A stretch of 64,000 nucleotides of DNA from an uncultured Actinomycetota bacterium (GCA_963804905.1 CAWDSB010000008.1:192053-256052); one strand, 5' to 3'; positions 3,095 to 59,315 are shown, counted from the stretch's first letter. Translations and numbers: made by a program. The notes: generated from the letters alone by a model not told the origin.

Positions 3095-3763
3095 ATGCGA
3101 ACCGCGTACCACGAGCAACTCGACGCCCTGACCAATCAGCTCGGCGACATGTGCGGGCTGGCAGGTGTTGCGATGGAGCGCGCGACCCAGGCCCTCCTGC
3201 AGGCCGATCTGGTGCTGGCCGAGCAGGTGATCACCGACCACGAGCAAATCGCGGCGATGAGCGCCAAGGCCGAAGAGGCGGCGTTCGTGCTGCTGGCACT
3301 GCAGGCGCCGGTGGCAGGCGACCTGCGCGCGATCGTCAGCTCCATCCAGATCGTCGCCGATGTCGACCGGATGGGAGCCCTCGCGCTGCACGTCGCCAAG
3401 ATCGCCCGCCGCCGCCATCCGCAGCATGCGCTGCCCGAGGAGGTCAACGGATACTTCGCCGAAATGGGCCGGGTGGCAGTCGAACTCGGCAACAGCGCGC
3501 AAGAGGTCCTGCTGACGCGCGACCCCGAGAAGGCGGCACGCATCAGTGAGGAAGACGATGCGATGGACGACCTGCACCGCCACCTCTTCACCGTGTTGAT
3601 GGACAAGGAATGGAAGCACGGCGTCACCGCCGCTGTCGACGTGACGCTGCTGAGCCGGTTCTACGAGCGATTCGCCGACCACGCCGTCGAGGTGGCCCGC
3701 CGAGTCATCTTCCAGGCCACCGGCAAATTGCCGGACGAGGAACAGCTTCCAGCGCCGCGCTAG
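3095..3763 (+). CDS. phoU: PhoU-family phosphate signalling regulator (PhoY-like)
   Basis: 222-aa ORF with duplicated PhoU helical repeats. Rv0821c (phoY2) position. Confidence 0.85.
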
Positions 3764-22922: not shown

Positions 22923-24119
22923 GTGTTTGTCGACCGCCACACGCCGCCCTACAAGGTTGCAGGGGCGGTGCTCATGGTGCTCGTTGCGGTAGTGGTGAGT
23001 TTCGTTTATTTGCAGTTCCGCGGCGAGTTGGGGTCGAAAACCCAGCTGACACTGTTGTCCTCGCGCGCCGGCCTCGTGGTGGATCCCGGCTCGAAGGTGA
23101 CCTACAACGGCGTTGAGATCGGCAAGGTGGCCGCCGTCGAGCACGTGAATGTCGACGACACGGCCAAGGCCGAGCTGACGCTGAACGTCGAACGCCGCTA
23201 CATCTCCTTGATTCCGGCCAATGTGATCGCCGACATCAGGGCGACGACGGTGTTCGGCAACAAGTACATCTCCTTCAGATCACCGAAAGACCCGACTTCA
23301 CGGCGGATTTCGAGCCGGGACTTGATCGAGGCGTCGTCGGTGACGACGGAGTTCAACACGCTGTTCGAAACCGTGATGTCGATCGCGGACCAGGTCGATC
23401 CGATCAAGCTCAACGCCACGTTGACCGCGACGGCCCAGGCGCTGACTGTGTGGGCGAGCGGTTCGGGAACTCGCTCATCGACGCGAACCGGATACTGGAC
23501 GATCTGAACCCGCGGATGCCACAGATCCGCGCCGCCACCGAGGGGGTGGCCGATCTCGCCGACGTGTACGCAGCCGCCTCCCCCGATCTGTGGGACGGCC
23601 TCGAGAACGCCGTGACCACCGCCCGCACGTTCAACGACCAGCGCGAAAACATCGACACGGCACTGATGGCGGCGATCGGTTTCAGCAACACGGCCGCCGA
23701 CAGCTTCGAACGCGGCGGCCCGTATCTCGTGCGCGGCAGCGAGGATCTGCTGCCGACGACGAAGCTGCTCGACGACTACCGGGACATGATCTTCTGCACC
23801 GCCCGCAACTACGCGGGTGGGCCGAGGATCGCCAAGGTGCTCGGCGGCGCAACGGCTACGCGCTGCACTCGTCGGGCACCATCCTCCCGCCGGGCAGCGT
23901 TCGTCTACCGACAACCTGCCGCGGGTGAACGCCAGGGGCGGACCAGAGGGTCGGCCCGGCTGCTGGAAGAAGGTCACCAAGTACCTGTATCCGTTCCTGT
24001 ATCTGGTGATGGACACCGGTGTCAGCATCGCCCCGTACAACCACTTGGAGATCGCGTCGCCGATCGCCACCGACTACGTCTGGGGCCGGCAGTTCGGCGA
24101 GCCCACAATCAACCCGTAA
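22923..24119 (+). pseudogene. Orphan Mce-family (MceA-like) gene disrupted by three frameshifts
   Basis: N-terminal MlaD domain in frame 0 (22923..about 23460). Middle section in frame 2 (…KLLDDYRDMIFCTARNY). NGYALHSSG in frame 1. C-terminal TDNLPRVNARGGP…YVWGRQFGEPTINP in frame 0. No yrbE or other mce genes adjacent. Confidence 0.6.
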
Positions 24120-24757
24120 CCGTTGGTCCACACACACCGGCGCGCCGCTGGACGACAGACGCGGCGACCGCACCCGCTTCGTTGATGGCGAGGTGCGCCA
24201 GCATCGGGGCCGCCAGGCTGCCGGAGCACTCGCGCAGCAGTGCGAAGAGCCAACCCGCGACGCCGGTGACCAATACGGTGCCGATCACCGGCTCATCGGT
24301 GCCACGGGCATCGGCGATGTGCGACAGGCCGAATGCCAACGACTGCACCAACCGGCCGACCGTCGACCCGAATGCGTCTGCCGCGACGGTGCCCAAGCGC
24401 CGCGCGGAACGCAGCCTCCTCCGACCACACCGTGCCGATAGGGATGCGCACCAGCAGCCACGGCGCCTGCGGGCGCGGCAGATCGCGGTCGGCCATCGCT
24501 ACCCGCACGGGCGGCGCCGCCGTCGACGCCGCCACCCCCAAAGCCACCGGCGCGGCCACCGCCAGCCCGAGTCGCAGACCCGACCACAATGCGGGTGGCC
24601 GCAGGCCGAGCGGCGCGCCGGTCGCTGCGACGAGTCCGGCACCGAGGAGCGCGTGGATGAGGGCGCGCAAGCGCAATGGTATCCGCGGACCGACAAGCCC
24701 GTTCCAGCCGACCAGCGCCGCTGCCAATGCGAGCGCCCGGATTCGCTTGGCGTGCAC
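24109..24757 (-). pseudogene. CPBP-family (CAAX-type) intramembrane metalloprotease with one frameshift
   Basis: Motif 1 EEAAFR in ORF 24293..24757. Motifs FGLSH and HLAIN in ORF 24109..24396 (+1 frame). Frame change at a GGG run near 24385. Confidence 0.5.
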
Positions 24758-26520
24758 TAATACTCGGGTCCGTCATCGGCTTCGGTCTTCTCCAGCGCCA
24801 ACCGAATGCGTTCGGTGTCCTCGGTGGTCCAGCCGTCGGGGGGCGCGACAGCGGCCCAGCCGTCGAGGACGTACTCGCCGTAGTTGTGGCCGTGCCCGCC
24901 GGGAACCGACGCCGCATTGGTCATGTCGGCGGCGACCTGCCAGAACGTGACGATGGGGTACCAGCGCATCAGTGGCGGCCGGTCCCTGCCCGGCGGTTCC
25001 TTCAGCCAGTCCGGCCGGGTGAACATCAGATCCTCCGACCACCAGACGATCGGGTCCGAAGAGTGCTGCAGGAACAGCACCCGCGTGCCATCCCATGGCG
25101 CATCCGTGTCGGACGCGATCTCTGCGGCGCCGGTGGCCTGCGAGAACCGGACGGTGCGTCCGTTGTCGTAGCGTGGCTCGACTTCGGGGGTCCCGGGGTC
25201 ACGCCGGACGGTGATCGCCCTCCACAGCGGGCTGGCGTTGGGCGGGCCCACCCAGAGCACGGACGAGAACCCCATCCGCGCGATGTCGGGCAGCCAGCTG
25301 AACGCACCCTGGCCTGCCATGGAGCCGAGGCTCTCGCCGTAGAGCATCAGCTTGGGCCGTCGGTCCGGCGATAGCCGCAGCCACCAGTCGTGGATCGCGT
25401 CGATCATCGTCCGGCCGGAGTCCATCGACTTCTCGCGGTCGCCCAAAAACGAAATCCAGCTCGGCAGATACGAGTACTGCGATCCGACCAGCGCGGTGTC
25501 ACCGTTGTACATCAACTCCAGCGCCCGGGCGGCGACGGGGTTGATCCACCCGGTGCCGGTCGTCGGAATGATGACCAGCACCTTGCGTTCGAACGCGCGC
25601 GTGCGGTCCAGCTCGCGAACCAGGATGTCCGCACGCTCCTGATCGGTGCCTGCGGTCTGCAGCCCCGCGTAGACCCGGATGGGCTCCTTGGCGGGGCCGC
25701 CGTTGAGCCGGGACAGCTCACTCGTGTGCGGGCCGGTGGCGACGAAGTTGCGGCCCTGAAACCCCAGCGTGTCCCACGGTGCGAAAGACATTGGGCTGCC
25801 GGATCGTTCGCGATCCATCGGTTGGATGATCCCGGCCCGGGTGGTGGTGTTCTGTGGTTGGAACACCCGGTTGGCGCCTGCCAGGAACCCGCGGATCGCC
25901 ACGCCGTTGATCAGTGTGATCGCCAGCACGACGACGATGGCGGTGCCGATGAACAGCGCAACCTCGTCATGCAGGTGCCAGCGCCGGATGAAGTACCGGG
26001 CCATCGTCTTGATCAGGTCGATGATCACTCGCGCAGCGGACACGCATATGCCTCCGGCGAGCACGGCGATGATCAGGGTGCGGAGATAGCCGGCAGTTCC
26101 CGGACCTTCCATTCCCGCTCACGGCGGACACCTGGCGCTGCCATGCCGCGGCCGGGATCAGCATCAGCACGCTCGCGGTCGCCGACAGCGCGACGGTGGC
26201 CGCCTTCAGCCAGTAGAGCACCCGCTTCGACGGAGGCCACCATTCCCGGCGTTGTAACACGAAGCGGCGCACCATTTTTCCGGAGAACACGCCGATCCCG
26301 TAGCCGATGGCCGCATTGAGCCCACCGATCAGACCCTGAAACAGCCAGTCGCGCGGCAGTAGTGACGGCGTCAGCGACAGGCAGAAGAACAGCGCGCCGA
26401 ACGCGACGCCGACGAAGTCGAGACGCACAAGCCTCCACGCCCATACCAGCAGCGGATGGCGTTGCTTGCGCTCGTGGGTTGCGGCGACCGGTTCGCCGGT
26501 GATGTCGTCGGTCGGAACAC

Positions 26521-26524
<4 letters not shown>
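24757..26524 (-). pseudogene. Abhydrolase_9-type membrane alpha/beta hydrolase split by one frameshift
   Basis: N-terminal membrane domain in ORF 25967..26524. Hydrolase body in ORF 24757..26112, in a different frame. Junction near 26110. Start overlaps the purL stop. Confidence 0.55.
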
Positions 26525-29791: not shown

Positions 29792-31045
29792 TCAGCTGGG
29801 AGACAGGAAGGCCGCCAGCGCAGCGAAGTAAGCGGCGACGTCGTCGGCGCCCATCACCTCGCGCGCCGAGTGCATGGCCAACTGGGCCGCGCCGACGTCG
29901 ACGGTGGGGATGCCGGTGCGCGCCGAGGTCATCGGCCCGATCGTCGACCCGCAGGGCAGGTCGGCCCGATGTTCGTAGCGCTGCAGCGGCACCCCCGCCT
30001 GCCGGCAGGCCAGCGCGAACGCGGCGGCGCTGCGGCCGTCGGTGGCGTAGCGCAGGTTCGGTTGCACCTTGAGCACCGGCCCGGCGTTCACCTCGATCAA
30101 GTGGCCCGGCTCGTGGCGCTCGGGGTAGTTCGGGTGGGTGGCGTGTGCCATGTCACCCGACGCCACCATGGATCCGGGTAGCCGACGCAGGAAATCCTCC
30201 CGGCCGCCGCCCGCGGCGAGCGTGATGCGTTCCAGCACGGTCGGCAACAGCTCGGACTGCGCGCCGTGATCCGACTGCGAACCCACTTCCTCGTGATCGA
30301 AAAGGGCGAGCACCGGCAGGTATTCGCTCGGTTGCGCGGCCAGGAATGCTTCCAGCCCTGCATAGCAGGTGGCCTGATTGTCCAGCCGCGGCGCGCTCAC
30401 CAGTTGCTTGTCGGCACCGACGAGTGTCGACGGCGTCAGGTCGTGTGTCATCAGTTCGGCGGCGAGTACGTCGTCGGCGTCGACCTCGGCGCGCTCGGCG
30501 ATGTAGCCGAGGAACGACCGCGGCCCGTCGCCCACTCCCCATACCGCGTTGACGTGCCGCTGAGGATCCAGGGCGACGGCCTTGCGGTCTTCGGCGAGAT
30601 GGATGGCCAGCTGCGGCACGCGCAGGATCGGCTCGTCGATGCGCAGCAGCCGGTGATTGACGGTGCCGCCGGTCCGGACCGACAGCCGGCCGCTTATCCC
30701 GAGATCGCGGTCCAGCCACGAGTTCAGCCACGCGCCGCCGTAGGGCTGCAGCGCGACGACCTGCCAACCCGACACGAACCGGTCGGGATGCTGCTTGACC
30801 CGCAGGTTGGGACTATCGGTGTGGGCACCGACGATCCGGAACGGCAGATGCTGCTCGGTGCTGTTCCACGCGACCAGTGAGCCGGCCCGCACGGTGAAGA
30901 AGCGGCCCGTTTCCGGCCAGGCGTCCCGCTCGGACAGTTCGGTGAAGCCTGCCGCGCTGAGCCGCTGCGCGGCGGTCACGCAGACGTGAAACGGCGACGG
31001 CGACGCGTCGACGAACTCGCACAGCCCGTGCGGAGTAGCTGGCAT
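29792..31045 (-). CDS. M18-family aspartyl aminopeptidase (PepC/ApeB-like)
   Basis: 417 aa. M18 metal-ligand motifs (GAHTDSP, DHEEVGS). Rv0800 position beside the DyP/encapsulin pair. Confidence 0.85.
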
Positions 31046-31085: not shown

Positions 31086-32121
31086 ATGGTGCCCGATCCC
31101 CTGCCGCAGCCGGTTCTGGCGCCCTTGACACCCGCCGCCATCTTCCTGGTGGCCACGATCGACGACGACGGTGAATCAGCGGTCCACGATGCGTTGCCGG
31201 ACATCTCCGGGCTGGTGCGCTCGATCGGCTTCCGCGATCCGACCAAGCGGCTGTCGGTGGTCACGTCGATCGGCTCCGATGCGTGGGATCGGCTGTTCTC
31301 CGGACCACGCCCGGCCGAACTGCACCCGTTCATCGAAATCCAGGGCGGCCGCCATGACGCACCCGCGACGCCGGGTGATCTGCTGTTCCACATCAGGGCC
31401 GAGTCGATGGACGTCTGCTTCGAGCTGGCGTCCAAGCTCGTCGATGCGATCTCCGGAGCGATCACGGTCGTCGACGAAGTGCACGGCTTCAAGTTCTTCG
31501 ACAACCGCGACCTGATGGGTTTCGTCGACGGCACCGAGAACCCAGACGGCCCAATCGCGTTGTCCGCCACCCAGATCGGTGACGAGGACTCCGACTTCGC
31601 GGGCGGCAGCTACGTGCATGTCCAGAAATACGTGCACGATATGGAAACGTGGAACTCGCTGTCGACCGAGGAGCAGGAGCGGGTCATCGGGCGAACCAAG
31701 CTCGACGACATCGAACTCGACGACGCGGTCAAGCCGGCCAACTCGCACCTCGCGCTCAACGTCATCGAGGACGACGACGGCAACGAACTGAAGATCGTGC
31801 GCCACAACATGCCGTTCGGCGAGGTGGGCAAGGGCGAGTTCGGCACGTACTACATCGGTTACTCGCGCACCCCCGCGGTCACCGAGCGGATGTTGAACAA
31901 CATGTTCATCGGTGATCCACCGGGAAACACCGACCGAATCCTCGATTTCTCGACGGCCTTGACCGGCGGCATGTTCTTCACTCCCACCGTCGACTTCCTT
32001 GATGACCCACCGCCACTGGCGGGTTCGGGTCCCGAGGACGATGCCCCGGCCACCCCCACTCGTTTCCCCGTCCCGCGACGGATCACTCGGCATCGGCAGC
32101 CTGAAAGGAACTCACCGATGA
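31086..32121 (+). pseudogene. DyP-type peroxidase (encapsulin cargo); a single-base frameshift immediately upstream of its cargo-loading peptide fuses it in frame to encapsulin in this assembly
   Basis: DyP core down to …FFTPTVDFLDDPPPLAGSGPEDDAPATPTRFPVP. The canonical targeting peptide DGSLGIGSLKGTHR and a TGA (32119-32121) are in the +1 frame. The zero frame instead reads through into the encapsulin ATG. Confidence 0.75.
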
Positions 32122-32915
32122 ACAACCTTTACCGCGATCTAGCTCCGATCACCGAAGAGGCTTGGGCGGAAATCGAATTGGAGGCGACGCGGACTTTCAA
32201 GCGGAATATCGCCGGAAGGCGCGTCGTCGATGTCAGTGAGCCCGGTGGTCCCGTCACCGCGGCGATCAGCACCGGACACCTGCTCGATGTCGTCCCGCCC
32301 GGCGACGGCGTGGTGGCCCATCTGCGCGAAAGCAAGCCGCTGGTGCGGCTGCGGGTGCCGTTCACGGTGTCGCGGACCGACATCGACGACGTGGAGCGCG
32401 GTTCGCAGGACTCGAACTGGGATCCGGTCAAGGATGCCGCCAAGAAGCTGGCGTTCGTGGAGGACCGGGCCATCTTCGAGGGCTACGAGGCGGCGTCCAT
32501 CGACGGTATCCGCAATTGCAGCTCCAACCCGGCCCTCGCGTTGCCCGGCGATGCCCGCGAGATCCCCGACGTCATCGCGCAGGCGCTGTCCGAGCTTCGG
32601 CTCGCCGGTGTCGACGGCCCGTATTCGGTGCTGCTGTCTGCCGACGTGTACACCAAGGTCAGCGAGACCACCGAGCACGGCTATCCGATCCGCGAGCACC
32701 TCAACAGACTCGTGGACGGAGACATCATCTGGGCGCCCGCGATCGACGGCGCGTTCGTGCTGTCCACCCGCGGCGGTGATTTCGACCTGCAGCTGGGCAC
32801 CGACGTCTCGATCGGGTACCTGACGCACGACGCCGAGACGGTGCAGCTCTACCTGCAGGAGACGCTGACGTTCGTGTGCTACACCGCGGAAGCGTCGGTG
32901 GCGCTGACGCCCTGA
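32118..32915 (+). CDS. Family-1 encapsulin shell protein (Cfp29-like)
   Basis: 265 aa from ATG 32118 (MNNLYRDLAPITEEAWAEIE…), HK97-fold encapsulin. ATGA overlap with the frame-corrected DyP stop. Confidence 0.85.
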   Translation: MNNLYRDLAPITEEAWAEIELEATRTFKRNIAGRRVVDVSEPGGPVTAAISTGHLLDVVPPGDGVVAHLRESKPLVRLRVPFTVSRTDIDDVERGSQDSNWDPVKDAAKKLAFVEDRAIFEGYEAASIDGIRNCSSNPALALPGDAREIPDVIAQALSELRLAGVDGPYSVLLSADVYTKVSETTEHGYPIREHLNRLVDGDIIWAPAIDGAFVLSTRGGDFDLQLGTDVSIGYLTHDAETVQLYLQETLTFVCYTAEASVALTP

Positions 32916-33099
32916 CCCCATTCCCCCGCGAGCTGGGGGCACCTCCCCGCGTGCAAGGGGGAGCGTGTCTGCGACCGACACGCCGTGAGTTGGCCGGAGT
33001 TTGCGCACGCTCGCAGTGGATTCAGGGCGTGGAATATTTGGTCGGCAATCCGACTTCTCCTGGCATAGCTTCAACCATTCCCCCAGGGAGGCGGGTTTC

Positions 33100-33846
33100 A
33101 TGGCAAACTCATTCGACGGCAGCAAGGCGCTGGTCACCGGGGCCACTGCGGGCATCGGCAAGGCCATCGCCCTGCAACTTGCCCGCGAGGGCGCAGAAGT
33201 AATAGTGCACGGACGCAACGCCGAACGCGGCGCCAAAGCAGTCACAGACATCGAAAATGCCGGTGGCAAAGCCCAATTCATCCAGGCCGACCTGTCCAAG
33301 GCCGACGATGTGCGTCGGCTCGCGGCCGAAGCCGGCCAGGTGGACATCCTTGTCAACAACGCCGGTGTGTACAGCTTCGCTTCGACGTTCGAGACCGAAG
33401 AGGCCGACTTCGACGCCCACTTCGACACTAACCTGCGGGCGCCGTACATCCTGGTCCAGAAGCTCGTCCCCGGCATGATCGACCGCGGGCACGGCACCGT
33501 GGTCAACATCAGCACCGTCGCCGCGAGTACACCATCGGCGGACGCCGGCATCTACGGCGCCAGCAAGGCGGCGCTCGACCTGCTGACGAAGCTCTGGGCC
33601 GACGAGTTCGGCGGGGCGGGGATACGCGTGAATGCCATCGCACCCGGACCGGTCGAGACCGAAGGCACATCGGAAATACCCGACCTCGTCGAAGGCCTGG
33701 CTCGTACCAGGGCAATCGAGCGGATCGGTGAGCCCGAGGAGATCGCCCAAGCGGTCGCGTTCATAGCCTCACCCGCAGCGAGTTACATCAACGGCGTGGT
33801 TCTACCCGTGGACGGCGGCGCGAAGGCGCTTCGGCCGGTGGCCTAG
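33100..33846 (+). CDS. SDR-family oxidoreductase
   Basis: [10 protein letters not shown] Rossmann motif, catalytic YGASK. GGGAGG RBS 10 nt upstream of ATG 33100. Confidence 0.75.
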
Positions 33847-37867: not shown

Positions 37868-38572
37868 TCAGGCGGCGTCGGTCAAGGCCGGATAGGGCCG
37901 CCACTCGTAGACCCCGGGCACGCACTGGTGCATCAACGCCAGGTCGATGCAGTCGAGCATTGCCTGGCGCGGCCCGGGCCTGTGCAGGTGGCGTGCTGCC
38001 ACCGCGACGCGCACGATGCCCGACCGGCGCGCGGTGCGGTCAGCGGACATCACCAGCGTGCGACACCACCACGGCTCCGACAGGAAGCCCTCGCCGATAC
38101 CGAGTACCCGCGCCCTCATCGTCGCTTTCCGCACCAGGTCGGTGATTCCGCTCAGTTCGGCCAGCAGTCGGAAGCCGTTGCGCGGCAACGCATTGATCGT
38201 TCCCTGTGACACCGTCCAGCCCGGCGCGGCGAACAGCCGAGTGCGCAAACCGAGATGCTCGAGCACCCGGTCGGCGCCCATCAGCCGAAGGTTGGCTTCA
38301 TGGGCGGGCAACGTCGCGAACTCGCCACGCCGTTTCTTGGTCGCGGCCTCGTCGAAGCCGTGAAGAACGATGGCGTCGCCGCGACTTCGCCGCGCGGCAA
38401 GCCATTCCACCGTCGACGGATCCCGGTCGAGTCGGTAACCGCCCTTCAGCCTCGGCGCGACGAGGAACGACGACGGCACCCCTCGCTCTTCCAGTTGCGC
38501 GCAAAACGCCTCGACGTCGGACAGCGTCTGCTCACTGATCCCGGAAATCGAGACGATCAGTTGTCCAGCCAC
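37868..38572 (-). CDS. DUF2334-like (polysaccharide deacetylase-fold) hypothetical protein
   Basis: Start set at the internal GTG (VAGQLIVSISG…). The upstream 69 codons of the track ORF are Arg/Ser/Cys-rich and look non-coding. Confidence 0.4.
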   Translation of the reverse strand: MAGQLIVSISGISEQTLSDVEAFCAQLEERGVPSSFLVAPRLKGGYRLDRDPSTVEWLAARRSRGDAIVLHGFDEAATKKRRGEFATLPAHEANLRLMGADRVLEHLGLRTRLFAAPGWTVSQGTINALPRNGFRLLAELSGITDLVRKATMRARVLGIGEGFLSEPWWCRTLVMSADRTARRSGIVRVAVAARHLHRPGPRQAMLDCIDLALMHQCVPGVYEWRPYPALTDAA

Positions 38573-38639
38573 ACTCGTATTGTCGCAACACCAGGTGTCG
38601 CAACGGTTTCCGACACCCTTCCAGAAGTTGTCTATTCGG

Positions 38640-39137
38640 CTATCGCGGCAGAACCGCCTCGATGGCCTCGATGACCTCAGGCGCGTCCGGTTCTGTGCGC
38701 GGCCGGAACCGCCTGACCACCTCGCCACCCGGCGCGAGCAGGAACTTTTCGAAGTTCCACTGCACGTCACCGGCCTCACCGACAGCGTCGACCGTCTTCG
38801 TCAGCTCGGCGAACAGCGGGTGACGCTCCGGCCCGTTCACATCGGTCTTGGCCAGTAGCGGAAAGGTGACACCGTAGGTGGAGGAGCAGAACGTCTGGAT
38901 CTCCTCGGCGCTGCCGGGCTCCTGTCCCATGAACTGATTGCACGGCACCCCGATCACCGTCAGCCCCCGAGCGCCGTATTCCTTGGCGAGCTTCTCCAGG
39001 GCGCTGTATTGCGGCGTAAGACCGCATTTCGAGGCGACGTTGACGACCAGCACTGCGCCGTCGGTGAGTTCGGCGAGCGACGTCGGCTTGCCGTCGAGAG
39101 TGGTGAGGGCGATGTCGGTGAGCGGCGTGTCCGTCAT
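38640..39137 (-). CDS. gpx: Glutathione peroxidase
   Basis: Start at MTDTPLTDI. Catalytic VNVASKCGLT motif and WNFEKF motif. Confidence 0.85.
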   Translation of the reverse strand: MTDTPLTDIALTTLDGKPTSLAELTDGAVLVVNVASKCGLTPQYSALEKLAKEYGARGLTVIGVPCNQFMGQEPGSAEEIQTFCSSTYGVTFPLLAKTDVNGPERHPLFAELTKTVDAVGEAGDVQWNFEKFLLAPGGEVVRRFRPRTEPDAPEVIEAIEAVLPR

Positions 39138-57844: not shown

Positions 57845-59315
57845 TCAATCAGCTGCTGTGGCAATGGCTTTGGTTTCCAGGTATTCCTCGAAACCGGCGA
57901 GCCCCATCTCCCGGCCGATGCCGGACTGCTTGTAACCGCCGAACGGCATGTCGGCCGAGTACCAGACCCCGCCGTTGACGTTGACGGTGCCGACCCGCAT
58001 CCGCGCAGCGACGCCCGCCGCGCGCTCGGGATCGCCGCTGAACACCGTGCCCGACAAGCCGTAAGGCGAGTCGTTGGCGATCCGGACCGCGTCATCGTCG
58101 CCGTCGTGCGCGATCACGGTCAGCACGGGACCGAAGATCTCCTCACGCGCGACCTTGGCGGTGTTGTCCAGTCCCACAATGACTGTCGGCTCGATGAAGA
58201 ATCCGGTATCGCGGTCCGCGGGACGTCCTCCGCCGCAGGCGAACTTGCCACCCTCGTCGACGGCCGAATCCAGATAGCTCTGCACTCGGTCGCGCTGCCG
58301 CGACGAGATGAGTGGCCCGCAGATCGTGCGGGCATCTGTAGGGTCGCCGGGTTTCAGTGATCGCATGGTGCCCGCGGCAAGCTCGACAGCCTCGTCGTAG
58401 CGCGCGCGTGGCACGACCAGTCGGGTGGTGATCGCACAACCCTGCCCGGCGTGCGTCGACGCCGTGAACGCCGAAATCGCACAAGCACCCGCGAAGTCCG
58501 CGTCGTCCAGCACGAGGAAGGCCGACTTTCCGCCCAGCTCGAGGAATACCTTCTTCAGCGTTGCCGCGCCATCGGACATCACGGCGCGACCCGTCGCTGT
58601 CGAACCGGTGAACGAAACCATGTCCACCCGTGGATCTTTCGACAGCAGCGCACCGACGCCGTGGTCGCTGGAGGTGATGATGTTGACCACACCGGGCGGG
58701 ATGCCGGTGTGCTCGGTGATGAGCTCGCCGAGGATGGCCGCGCACCACGGAGTGTCCGGCGCCGGCTTGAGGACAACGGTGTTGCCCGCGGCCAGCGCGG
58801 GCCCGATCTTGGCGAGGTTGATCTGATGCGGGAAGTTCCACGGGGTGATCGGCGCCGACGACCCCGACCGCCTCGCGCGCGATGGTGCGGTGGGTCTTGA
58901 TTCCCAGCGGCGAGGCGATGCCGAGATCGGTGGTCCATTGATACGACGCGGCGGTGTCGGCGCAAAAGCTGAGGTCCTCCACCGGACCCTCGAGCTGGGC
59001 GGCGGCGGTCAGCATCCGGGGAGCGCCCACTTCGGCGATGGTCAGGTCGCGGAGCTCGTCGACGTGGTCGCGCATGGCGGACTGCAGCTGCCGAATGCAG
59101 CGCACCCGCAGCTCGGTGTTGGTGGACCAGTCGGTGTCGTCGAATGCGCGGCGGGCGGCCTCGATCGCTCGGCCCATGTCGTCGGCGCTCGCGTCGGCGG
59201 CGGCACCGAGCACCTCCTCGGTAGCCGGGTTCAGCGTCGGGAACGTCCCCGCGCCGCCGGCGACGAGTTTCCCGTCGATGAGCAATTGGCTCTGGCGATC
59301 GGCCAGCATCCCCAT
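57845..59315 (-). pseudogene. NAD-dependent aldehyde dehydrogenase (aldA-like) with a single-base insertion frameshift
   Basis: N-terminal 150 aa in ORF 58143..59315. Remainder, including the catalytic Cys region (AGQGCAITTR) and ELGGKSA, in frame of ORF 57845..58690. Shift at about 58855 (GA|D observed where GAITPWNFP is expected). Confidence 0.7.

Follow-up and report, generated by a model that had tools for sequence, protein, structure and literature searches.

Is the single open reading frame (ORF) that joins a DyP-type peroxidase to an encapsulin in this DNA a natural cargo-shell fusion, or a product of the assembly? The DNA analyzed, called the window here, is a stretch of 64,000 nucleotides (nt) from an uncultured Actinomycetota bacterium. 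As supplied, it contains an ORF of 609 amino acids (aa) extending from an ATG to a stop codon at 31086..32915 on the plus strand, and translation showed no stop between the DyP and the ATG of the encapsulin. The sequence-only reading of this DNA had offered two branches, a genuine covalent fusion or a canonical gene pair disturbed by an assembly error. The one-base repair and the many fresh frameshifts described below favour the second branch, and the first found no support. With a probability of roughly 0.88, an indel of the assembly consensus disturbs an otherwise canonical mycobacterial DyP-encapsulin operon, and the 609-aa fusion most likely has no biological reality.

Both proteins are present in full, as the sequence-only reading had stated. 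Pfam analysis of the 609-aa ORF identified Dyp_perox_N (aa 8-136), Dyp_perox_C (aa 139-303) and Linocin_M18, the encapsulin domain (aa 345-595). The encapsulin of 265 aa starts at the ATG at 32118 (MNNLYRDL...), which in the supplied sequence shares the reading frame of DyP. It matched positions 1-253 of the 253 positions of the PF04454 profile (E=3.4e-94), as a family-1 shell protein does, and its residues 1-265 aligned with Mycobacterium smegmatis Cfp29 (7BOJ, E=3e-157) and also with M. tuberculosis Cfp29 (7P1T). The cargo protein contains both the N- and C-terminal DyP domains and the GXXDG motif, which reads GFVDG in the translation, and its top matches in PDB were 7BOK and 9BKX, DyPs of the "encapsulated subgroup". 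The two genes have their orthologues in M. tuberculosis Rv0799c/Rv0798c (Cfp29) and in the DyP/encapsulin pair of M. smegmatis.

The end of the DyP gene is where the supplied sequence departs from this pattern. The +1 frame reads ...VSPSRDGSLGIGSLKGTHR followed by TGA at 32119-32121, which overlaps the encapsulin ATG as ATGA; this element had also been pointed out before, and it proved to be identical to the C-terminus of the closest relative retrieved. As supplied, DyP carries no targeting peptide and stop in its own frame, the two being offset by +1 from 32062. The gene lies directly upstream of the shell gene, as expected for the adjacent cargo of a family-1 encapsulin, and its peptide DGSLGIGSLKGTHR is present in the +1 frame only and comes into frame after removal of one base. 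Among 159 relatives, 155 carry the targeting peptide in frame, and so does the DyP of the window after the single-base repair; the peptide matches both DGSLGIGSLKGT of 7BOK and the motif of these 155 intact relatives.

The position of the extra base was determined by alignment with relatives. The closest sequence retrieved was a JGI metagenome contig (L088) with 94% nt identity over 4.8 kb. Its DyP gene is intact, with one base fewer than the window, and ends in ...DDASATPAVSPSRDGSLGIGSLKGTHR and a stop codon (C-terminus ...ATPAVSPSRDGSLGIGSLKGTHR) with the same ATGA overlap. From Val (GTT, 32062) on, the +1 frame of the window is identical to the L088 C-terminus in 19 of 19 residues, and therefore the targeting peptide is not there by chance. 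Over the aligned stretch from 32062 to the stop, the sole difference from L088 was one synonymous change (GTT vs GTC), the out-of-frame peptide thus being undecayed. Since the homology of the +1 frame to relatives starts at this GTT (V-S-P-S-R), the extra base was placed at 32058-32061; the region of 32070-32080 proposed by the sequence-only reading lies about 15 nt downstream of this site. The DNA alignment contained a lone 1-nt gap, with CCCCC-ACTCG-TT of the window facing CCCCC-GC-CG-TC of L088, and the ACTC of the window corresponds to GC-C in L088 and to G-TC in L018 and L016. In nucleotide alignments with L018, L016, others and the isolate locus L161, a 1-nt gap was found at the same spot. 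The run of five C at 32053-32057 is common to the window and L088, and expansion of this homopolymer was therefore ruled out as the cause.

Upon removal of any one base of 32058-32061, DyP became a protein of 344 aa ending in ...TP-(L/I/T)-VSPSRDGSLGIGSLKGTHR and a stop codon, while the relatives range from 339 to 347 aa. Residues 3-342 of the repaired protein aligned with M. smegmatis DyP 7BOK, its targeting peptide included (E=4.9e-194). Exact-sequence look-ups with the 609-aa ORF, the 265-aa encapsulin, pepC and purQ found no second assembly of the same organism, and hence no independent copy of the junction to compare. In scans of a genome collection and of metagenomes, the nearest relatives were at most 89% (L018) and 94% (L088) identical at the nt level, and none belonged to the same species or strain.

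The arrangement of the two genes accounts for the appearance of a fusion ORF. Because of the ATGA overlap, the frame of the encapsulin is that of DyP minus one, so that, wherever a +1 insertion falls in the GC-rich linker, which is poor in stops, a fusion ORF results automatically. The 20 residues between DyP and encapsulin in the supplied ORF (TRFPVPRRITRHRQPERNSP) result from translation out of frame; they are rich in Arg and involve the rare codons ACT (twice), CGT and CGA. Among close relatives (L001-L008 and others) the stop/start geometry differs, and ATGA overlap, TGATG-type overlap, abutting TAGATG in the same frame and a 7-nt spacer were all observed. With the same-frame TAGATG geometry, one stop-codon substitution would likewise make a fusion ORF.

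The targeting-peptide codons for Leu-Lys-Gly (CTG AAA GGA) form a predicted Shine-Dalgarno (SD) sequence, GAAAGGAA, which, from its sequence and spacing, probably serves the encapsulin gene. The DNA sequence CTGAAAGGAA was kept in nearly all of 24 aligned junctions, L023 and L011 sharing a single TTG variant, and this conservation at the DNA level suggests a dual constraint, on coding as well as on translation.

Frame breaks were not confined to this junction. The window was segmented by codon usage with a Viterbi procedure and then compared with the syntenic locus of the isolate Mycolicibacterium sp. 120270 (L161), in which all genes are intact; an initial gene map based on sliding windows of GC content at third codon positions was too noisy for frameshift calls. 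At least eight (about 8-9) further indel sites were identified in five other conserved genes of the window (Table 1). The densest cluster lies in an mce gene, which carries four small deletions relative to its L161 orthologue: its Mce4_CUP1 profile was split between positions 53 and 56 over two ORFs, and tblastn with the intact 401-aa L161 gene switched frame three times. The ptrB-like S9 oligopeptidase is a single gene of 714 aa in L161; its M. tuberculosis H37Rv counterpart is also annotated in two pieces (ptrBa and ptrBb), a coincidence. In the aldehyde dehydrogenase gene, the insertion falls inside the conserved GVVGAITPWNFP motif. None of the window indels sits in a long homopolymer. L161 offered an orthologue for every broken gene but the aldehyde dehydrogenase, and the fragments of these genes showed 69-92% protein identity to it, no worse than intact neighbours, which indicates fresh lesions without accompanying decay. 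Two regions considered as further frameshifts, 13.8-15.1 kb and 49.3-50.3 kb, were rejected, each consisting of ordinary small adjacent genes.

The density of these breaks was calibrated with six genes of the neighbourhood (the SnoaL-like gene, pepC, DyP, encapsulin, short-chain dehydrogenase and purQ) as probes against 160 retrieved loci. A total of 22 loci came from Nanopore-only metagenome-assembled genomes (MAGs) of Microflora Danica (MFD; PMC12313526), and the others from isolates, Illumina MAGs and metagenomes. The MFD loci contained 16 frame switches in 94 kb of coding sequence (0.17 per kb), while the 138 other loci contained 0 in 451 kb. The window, with about 8-9 frame switches in about 58 kb of coding sequence (about 0.15 per kb), is close to the rate of the Nanopore MAGs, and no such breaks occur in the accurate loci. 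The DyP/encapsulin junction was likewise intact in 155 of 159 informative loci, and the four in which it was broken (L009, L011, L012 and L021) are all MFD MAGs. Aberrant junctions thus occurred in 4/22 MFD loci vs 0/137 others (hypergeometric P about 3e-4, hand calculation), and L011 has a DyP-encapsulin read-through ORF of like kind. The genome-collection loci nearest to the window in nt identity, L018 and L016, are also MFD MAGs. From the error signature and these nearest relatives, the source of the indel is most likely a long-read consensus of the Nanopore type, and the extra base is probably absent from the real DNA.

On this explanation, the one spurious base at 32058-32061 would be a residual consensus indel like the at least eight others in the window. 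The actual DyP would most likely be the 344-aa protein that ends in the targeting peptide, its TGA overlapping the encapsulin ATG, and the encapsulin would be translated from its own SD within the targeting-peptide codons. By homology, DyP hexamers should be loaded non-covalently through the C-terminal peptide into a shell of 60 subunits, and the system would contribute to oxidative-stress defence.

An extra base gained very recently by the organism itself is the alternative to be weighed first. DyP would then lose its targeting peptide and read through the Arg-rich junction into a fusion protein of about 66 kDa, while free encapsulin would still be made from the internal SD and ATG, both of which are intact; the outcome would be a partly disabled system with unloaded or mis-assembled shells, or shells with few covalently tethered DyP subunits. 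The supplied sequence does encode the fusion product, and the encapsulin N-terminus faces the lumen in the natural Flp- and cytochrome-fusion encapsulins (PMC8346489). In addition, the broken genes of the window are all of a dispensable type, and mce carries multiple lesions as real pseudogenes do. On the other hand, no junction lesion was found among the 137 orthologous loci of isolate and Illumina-derived origin, and frameshifts occur in the window as densely as in Nanopore-only MAGs. The undecayed peptide in the +1 frame and the lack of excess divergence in the broken genes also speak against a real insertion. The site is not a homopolymer, and spontaneous indels of bacteria outside homopolymers are unusual. 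A real insertion is, on balance, considered unlikely.

The geometry of the shell narrows this alternative further. One or two DyP hexamers are contained in an M. smegmatis shell (PMC8346489). A 36-kDa, hexamer-forming enzyme on all 60 subunits would be expected to overfill the T=1 shell, so that only mixed shells could function. The specific case in which the extra base is real and a minority of shell subunits carries a covalently tethered DyP in the lumen, beside free encapsulin, is held to be highly improbable.

The database matches bear on another possibility, namely that DyP and encapsulin have evolved into a functional fusion, which would be a new class of family 1 analogous to the Flp- and cytochrome-fusion encapsulins. 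What speaks for it is the ORF itself and about 14 other ORFs with DyP plus encapsulin: in a search of 5.8 billion proteins, 14 such ORFs were found, with 55-78% identity to the query in the best local alignment. Every one is a singleton, confined to a single contig. For the most part their junction peptides are unrelated and rich in Arg; in three, the targeting peptide remains in frame, and garbled stretches inside several of them indicate further frameshifts. Two were traced, P0006 and P0014, and both lie on error-prone MAG contigs of MFD style, with fragmented neighbour genes or a fragmented encapsulin. The junction of the window is shared by no orthologue, the best full-length match being a singleton of 64% identity, and the two genes are separate in 155 of the 159 related loci. 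A survey of family 1 included 1,505 DyP operons and described the Flp and diheme-cytochrome fusion classes only, with no DyP fusion (PMC8346489). Moreover, a natural fusion would be expected to be free of relics, but the window keeps a perfect targeting peptide and TGA in the +1 frame. The covalent fusion raised by the sequence-only reading thus found no clean, conserved counterpart in the orthologue comparison, and an evolved fusion class is regarded as extremely unlikely.

The codons at the junction raise the question of programmed +1 ribosomal frameshifting at CCC-ACU (32055-32060), in which the P-site tRNA-Pro would slip from CCC to CCA before the rare ACU, and a peptide-bearing DyP (...TPLVSPSRDGSLGIGSLKGTHR) and the read-through fusion would be produced from one mRNA. 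CCC-N sites are prone to +1 slippage, no Thr codon is rarer in the window than ACT (1.6 per 1000), and a +1 slip at this codon gives a sensible product, equivalent to the variant with A32058 removed. However, the two-frame architecture is not conserved, as 155 of 159 relatives are in frame and the other four have their breaks elsewhere, and no stimulatory element was identified. The eight other frameshifts of the window, in unrelated contexts, need no such cause. To programmed frameshifting we assign next to no weight.

Some points weigh against the assembly indel that we favour. The indels of the window all lie outside long homopolymers, and Nanopore errors classically concentrate in homopolymers. 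Five indel sites cluster in 23.4-26.1 kb, which could be a genuinely decaying region. No broken gene is obviously essential, and purL, purQ, purS and purC are intact, which leaves room for a real pseudogene burden. Finally, we infer both the absence of the extra base and the sequencing platform.

Table 1. Features of the DyP-encapsulin locus, its neighbours and the broken genes of the window.
Feature	Position	Strand	Basis or remark
DyP-type peroxidase (B-class, encapsulated subgroup), correctly framed part	31086..32057	+	PF04261 and PF20628; core and Pro/Ala/Asp-rich linker to ...DDAPATP
Site of one extra base (ACTC), shifting the DyP frame	32058..32061	+	1-nt gap against L088, L018, L016, others and L161
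Probable true 3' end of DyP: cargo-loading (targeting) peptide VSPSRDGSLGIGSLKGTHR and TGA, +1 frame	32062..32121	+	Identical to the L088 C-terminus
Predicted Shine-Dalgarno sequence of the encapsulin gene, GAAAGGAA	32103..32110	+	Inside the Leu-Lys-Gly codons, 8 nt upstream of the ATG
Family-1 (T=1 type) encapsulin shell protein, 265 aa, Cfp29 orthologue	32118..32915	+	PF04454 full profile; aligns with 7BOJ and 7P1T
Two GC-rich hairpins after the encapsulin stop	32922..32983	+	-37.4 kcal/mol, z=-2.5; possible terminator lacking a U-tract
Divergent M18 aspartyl aminopeptidase (pepC-like), conserved upstream neighbour	29792..31045	-	In synteny with Peptidase_M18 of L161 and L164
Short-chain dehydrogenase, usual accessory gene of mycobacterial DyP-encapsulin operons	33100..33846	+	Matches adh_short after the encapsulin in L161
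mce gene (MlaD and Mce4_CUP1, orphan), three breaks	22923..24119	+	1-nt deletions after 23445 and 23849, and two of 2 nt at about 23896 and 23909
Rce1-like (CPBP) protease, one break at about 24382-24398	24142..24757	-	Frame changes at aa 122 in tblastn with the L161 protein
Abhydrolase_9 gene, 1-nt insertion at about 26118	24760..26524	-	Frame changes at aa 137 in tblastn with the L161 protein
S9 oligopeptidase (ptrB-like), split by inserted A41287	40260..42396	-	Peptidase_S9_N profile divided over two consecutive ORFs (1-360 and 361-413)
Aldehyde dehydrogenase, 1-nt insertion at about 58850 in GVVGA/ITPWNFP	57845..59315	-	Aldedh profile 6-135 in one ORF, 186-461 in the other

The neighbourhood of the operon is that of its orthologues. 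The short-chain dehydrogenase accessory gene and purQ/purS lie downstream of the operon as in L161, and the M. tuberculosis Rv0798c-Rv0800 region has matching neighbours. Accessory short-chain oxidoreductases have been noted for such operons (PMC8346489). The two hairpins after the encapsulin stop may represent a terminator lacking a U-tract or a small repeat element, judging from the predicted fold; in L088, a GCTGGGGGCACCTCCCCGCG unit within the hairpins after the encapsulin is tandemly duplicated (about 3330-3400). A consensus scan for promoters and terminators around the operon gave nothing useful and no canonical terminator. Upstream, L088 has a 1-nt deletion of its own (about 183-200, corresponding to about 29780 of the window) before the stop of the SnoaL-like gene, by which that ORF is lengthened. 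The 1-nt difference at this place was accordingly rejected as a lesion of the window, which agrees with most relatives (...PASI and a stop). Farther downstream, an ORF with a good coding signal was observed at 37868-38800 on the minus strand, between the genes for an FAD-dependent oxidoreductase and a glutathione peroxidase; it has no counterpart in the otherwise syntenic L161, where 4 nt separate the flanking genes.

The chief value of the finding lies in quality control, in that ATGA-coupled cargo and shell genes of GC-rich genomes readily give false fusions in long-read assemblies. Because alternative frames of GC-rich DNA are nearly free of stops and the genes overlap as ATGA, a single insertion in the cargo linker makes a convincing fusion ORF. 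At least 14 singleton DyP-plus-encapsulin proteins are already present in a large protein collection and should be filtered out when encapsulin diversity is surveyed. A real extra base, unlikely on the evidence, would make this the first natural case of a DyP fused to an encapsulin and of covalent loading in a DyP nanocompartment; since the shell is encoded in the -1 frame relative to its cargo, covalent loading could then arise from peptide-mediated loading in one step.

Among known systems, the fusion encapsulins resemble the ORF on paper. In the Flp-fusion encapsulins (archaeal, e.g. Pyrococcus furiosus) and the anammox diheme cytochrome c-fusion encapsulins, the cargo is N-terminal to an HK97-fold shell protein (PMC8346489). 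Unlike the ORF of the window, each of these fusions is conserved within its lineage, assembles into T=3 shells and has no separate targeting peptide, whereas the window has a small shell of the T=1 type and a unique 20-residue junction that arises from reading an intact targeting peptide out of frame. With respect to the density of frame breaks, about 0.15-0.17 per kb, and to broken junctions, the window is similar to the Nanopore-only MAGs of Microflora Danica (PMC12313526). The closest known systems are the DyP-loaded encapsulin of M. smegmatis (7BOJ for the shell and 7BOK for DyP), with which the shell protein aligned over its full length and the DyP after repair, and the Cfp29/DyP system of M. 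tuberculosis (Rv0798c/Rv0799c; PDB 7P1T, 7PHM and 9BKX). Both have the DyP gene followed by the encapsulin gene with overlapping or abutting stop and start codons, and both are flanked by the M18 aminopeptidase, short-chain dehydrogenase, purQ and purS genes, as in the window. The linker sequence of the window is species-specific, as it is in all relatives, and the sole difference from these two systems is the extra base, which sets the last 19 codons and the stop of DyP out of frame.

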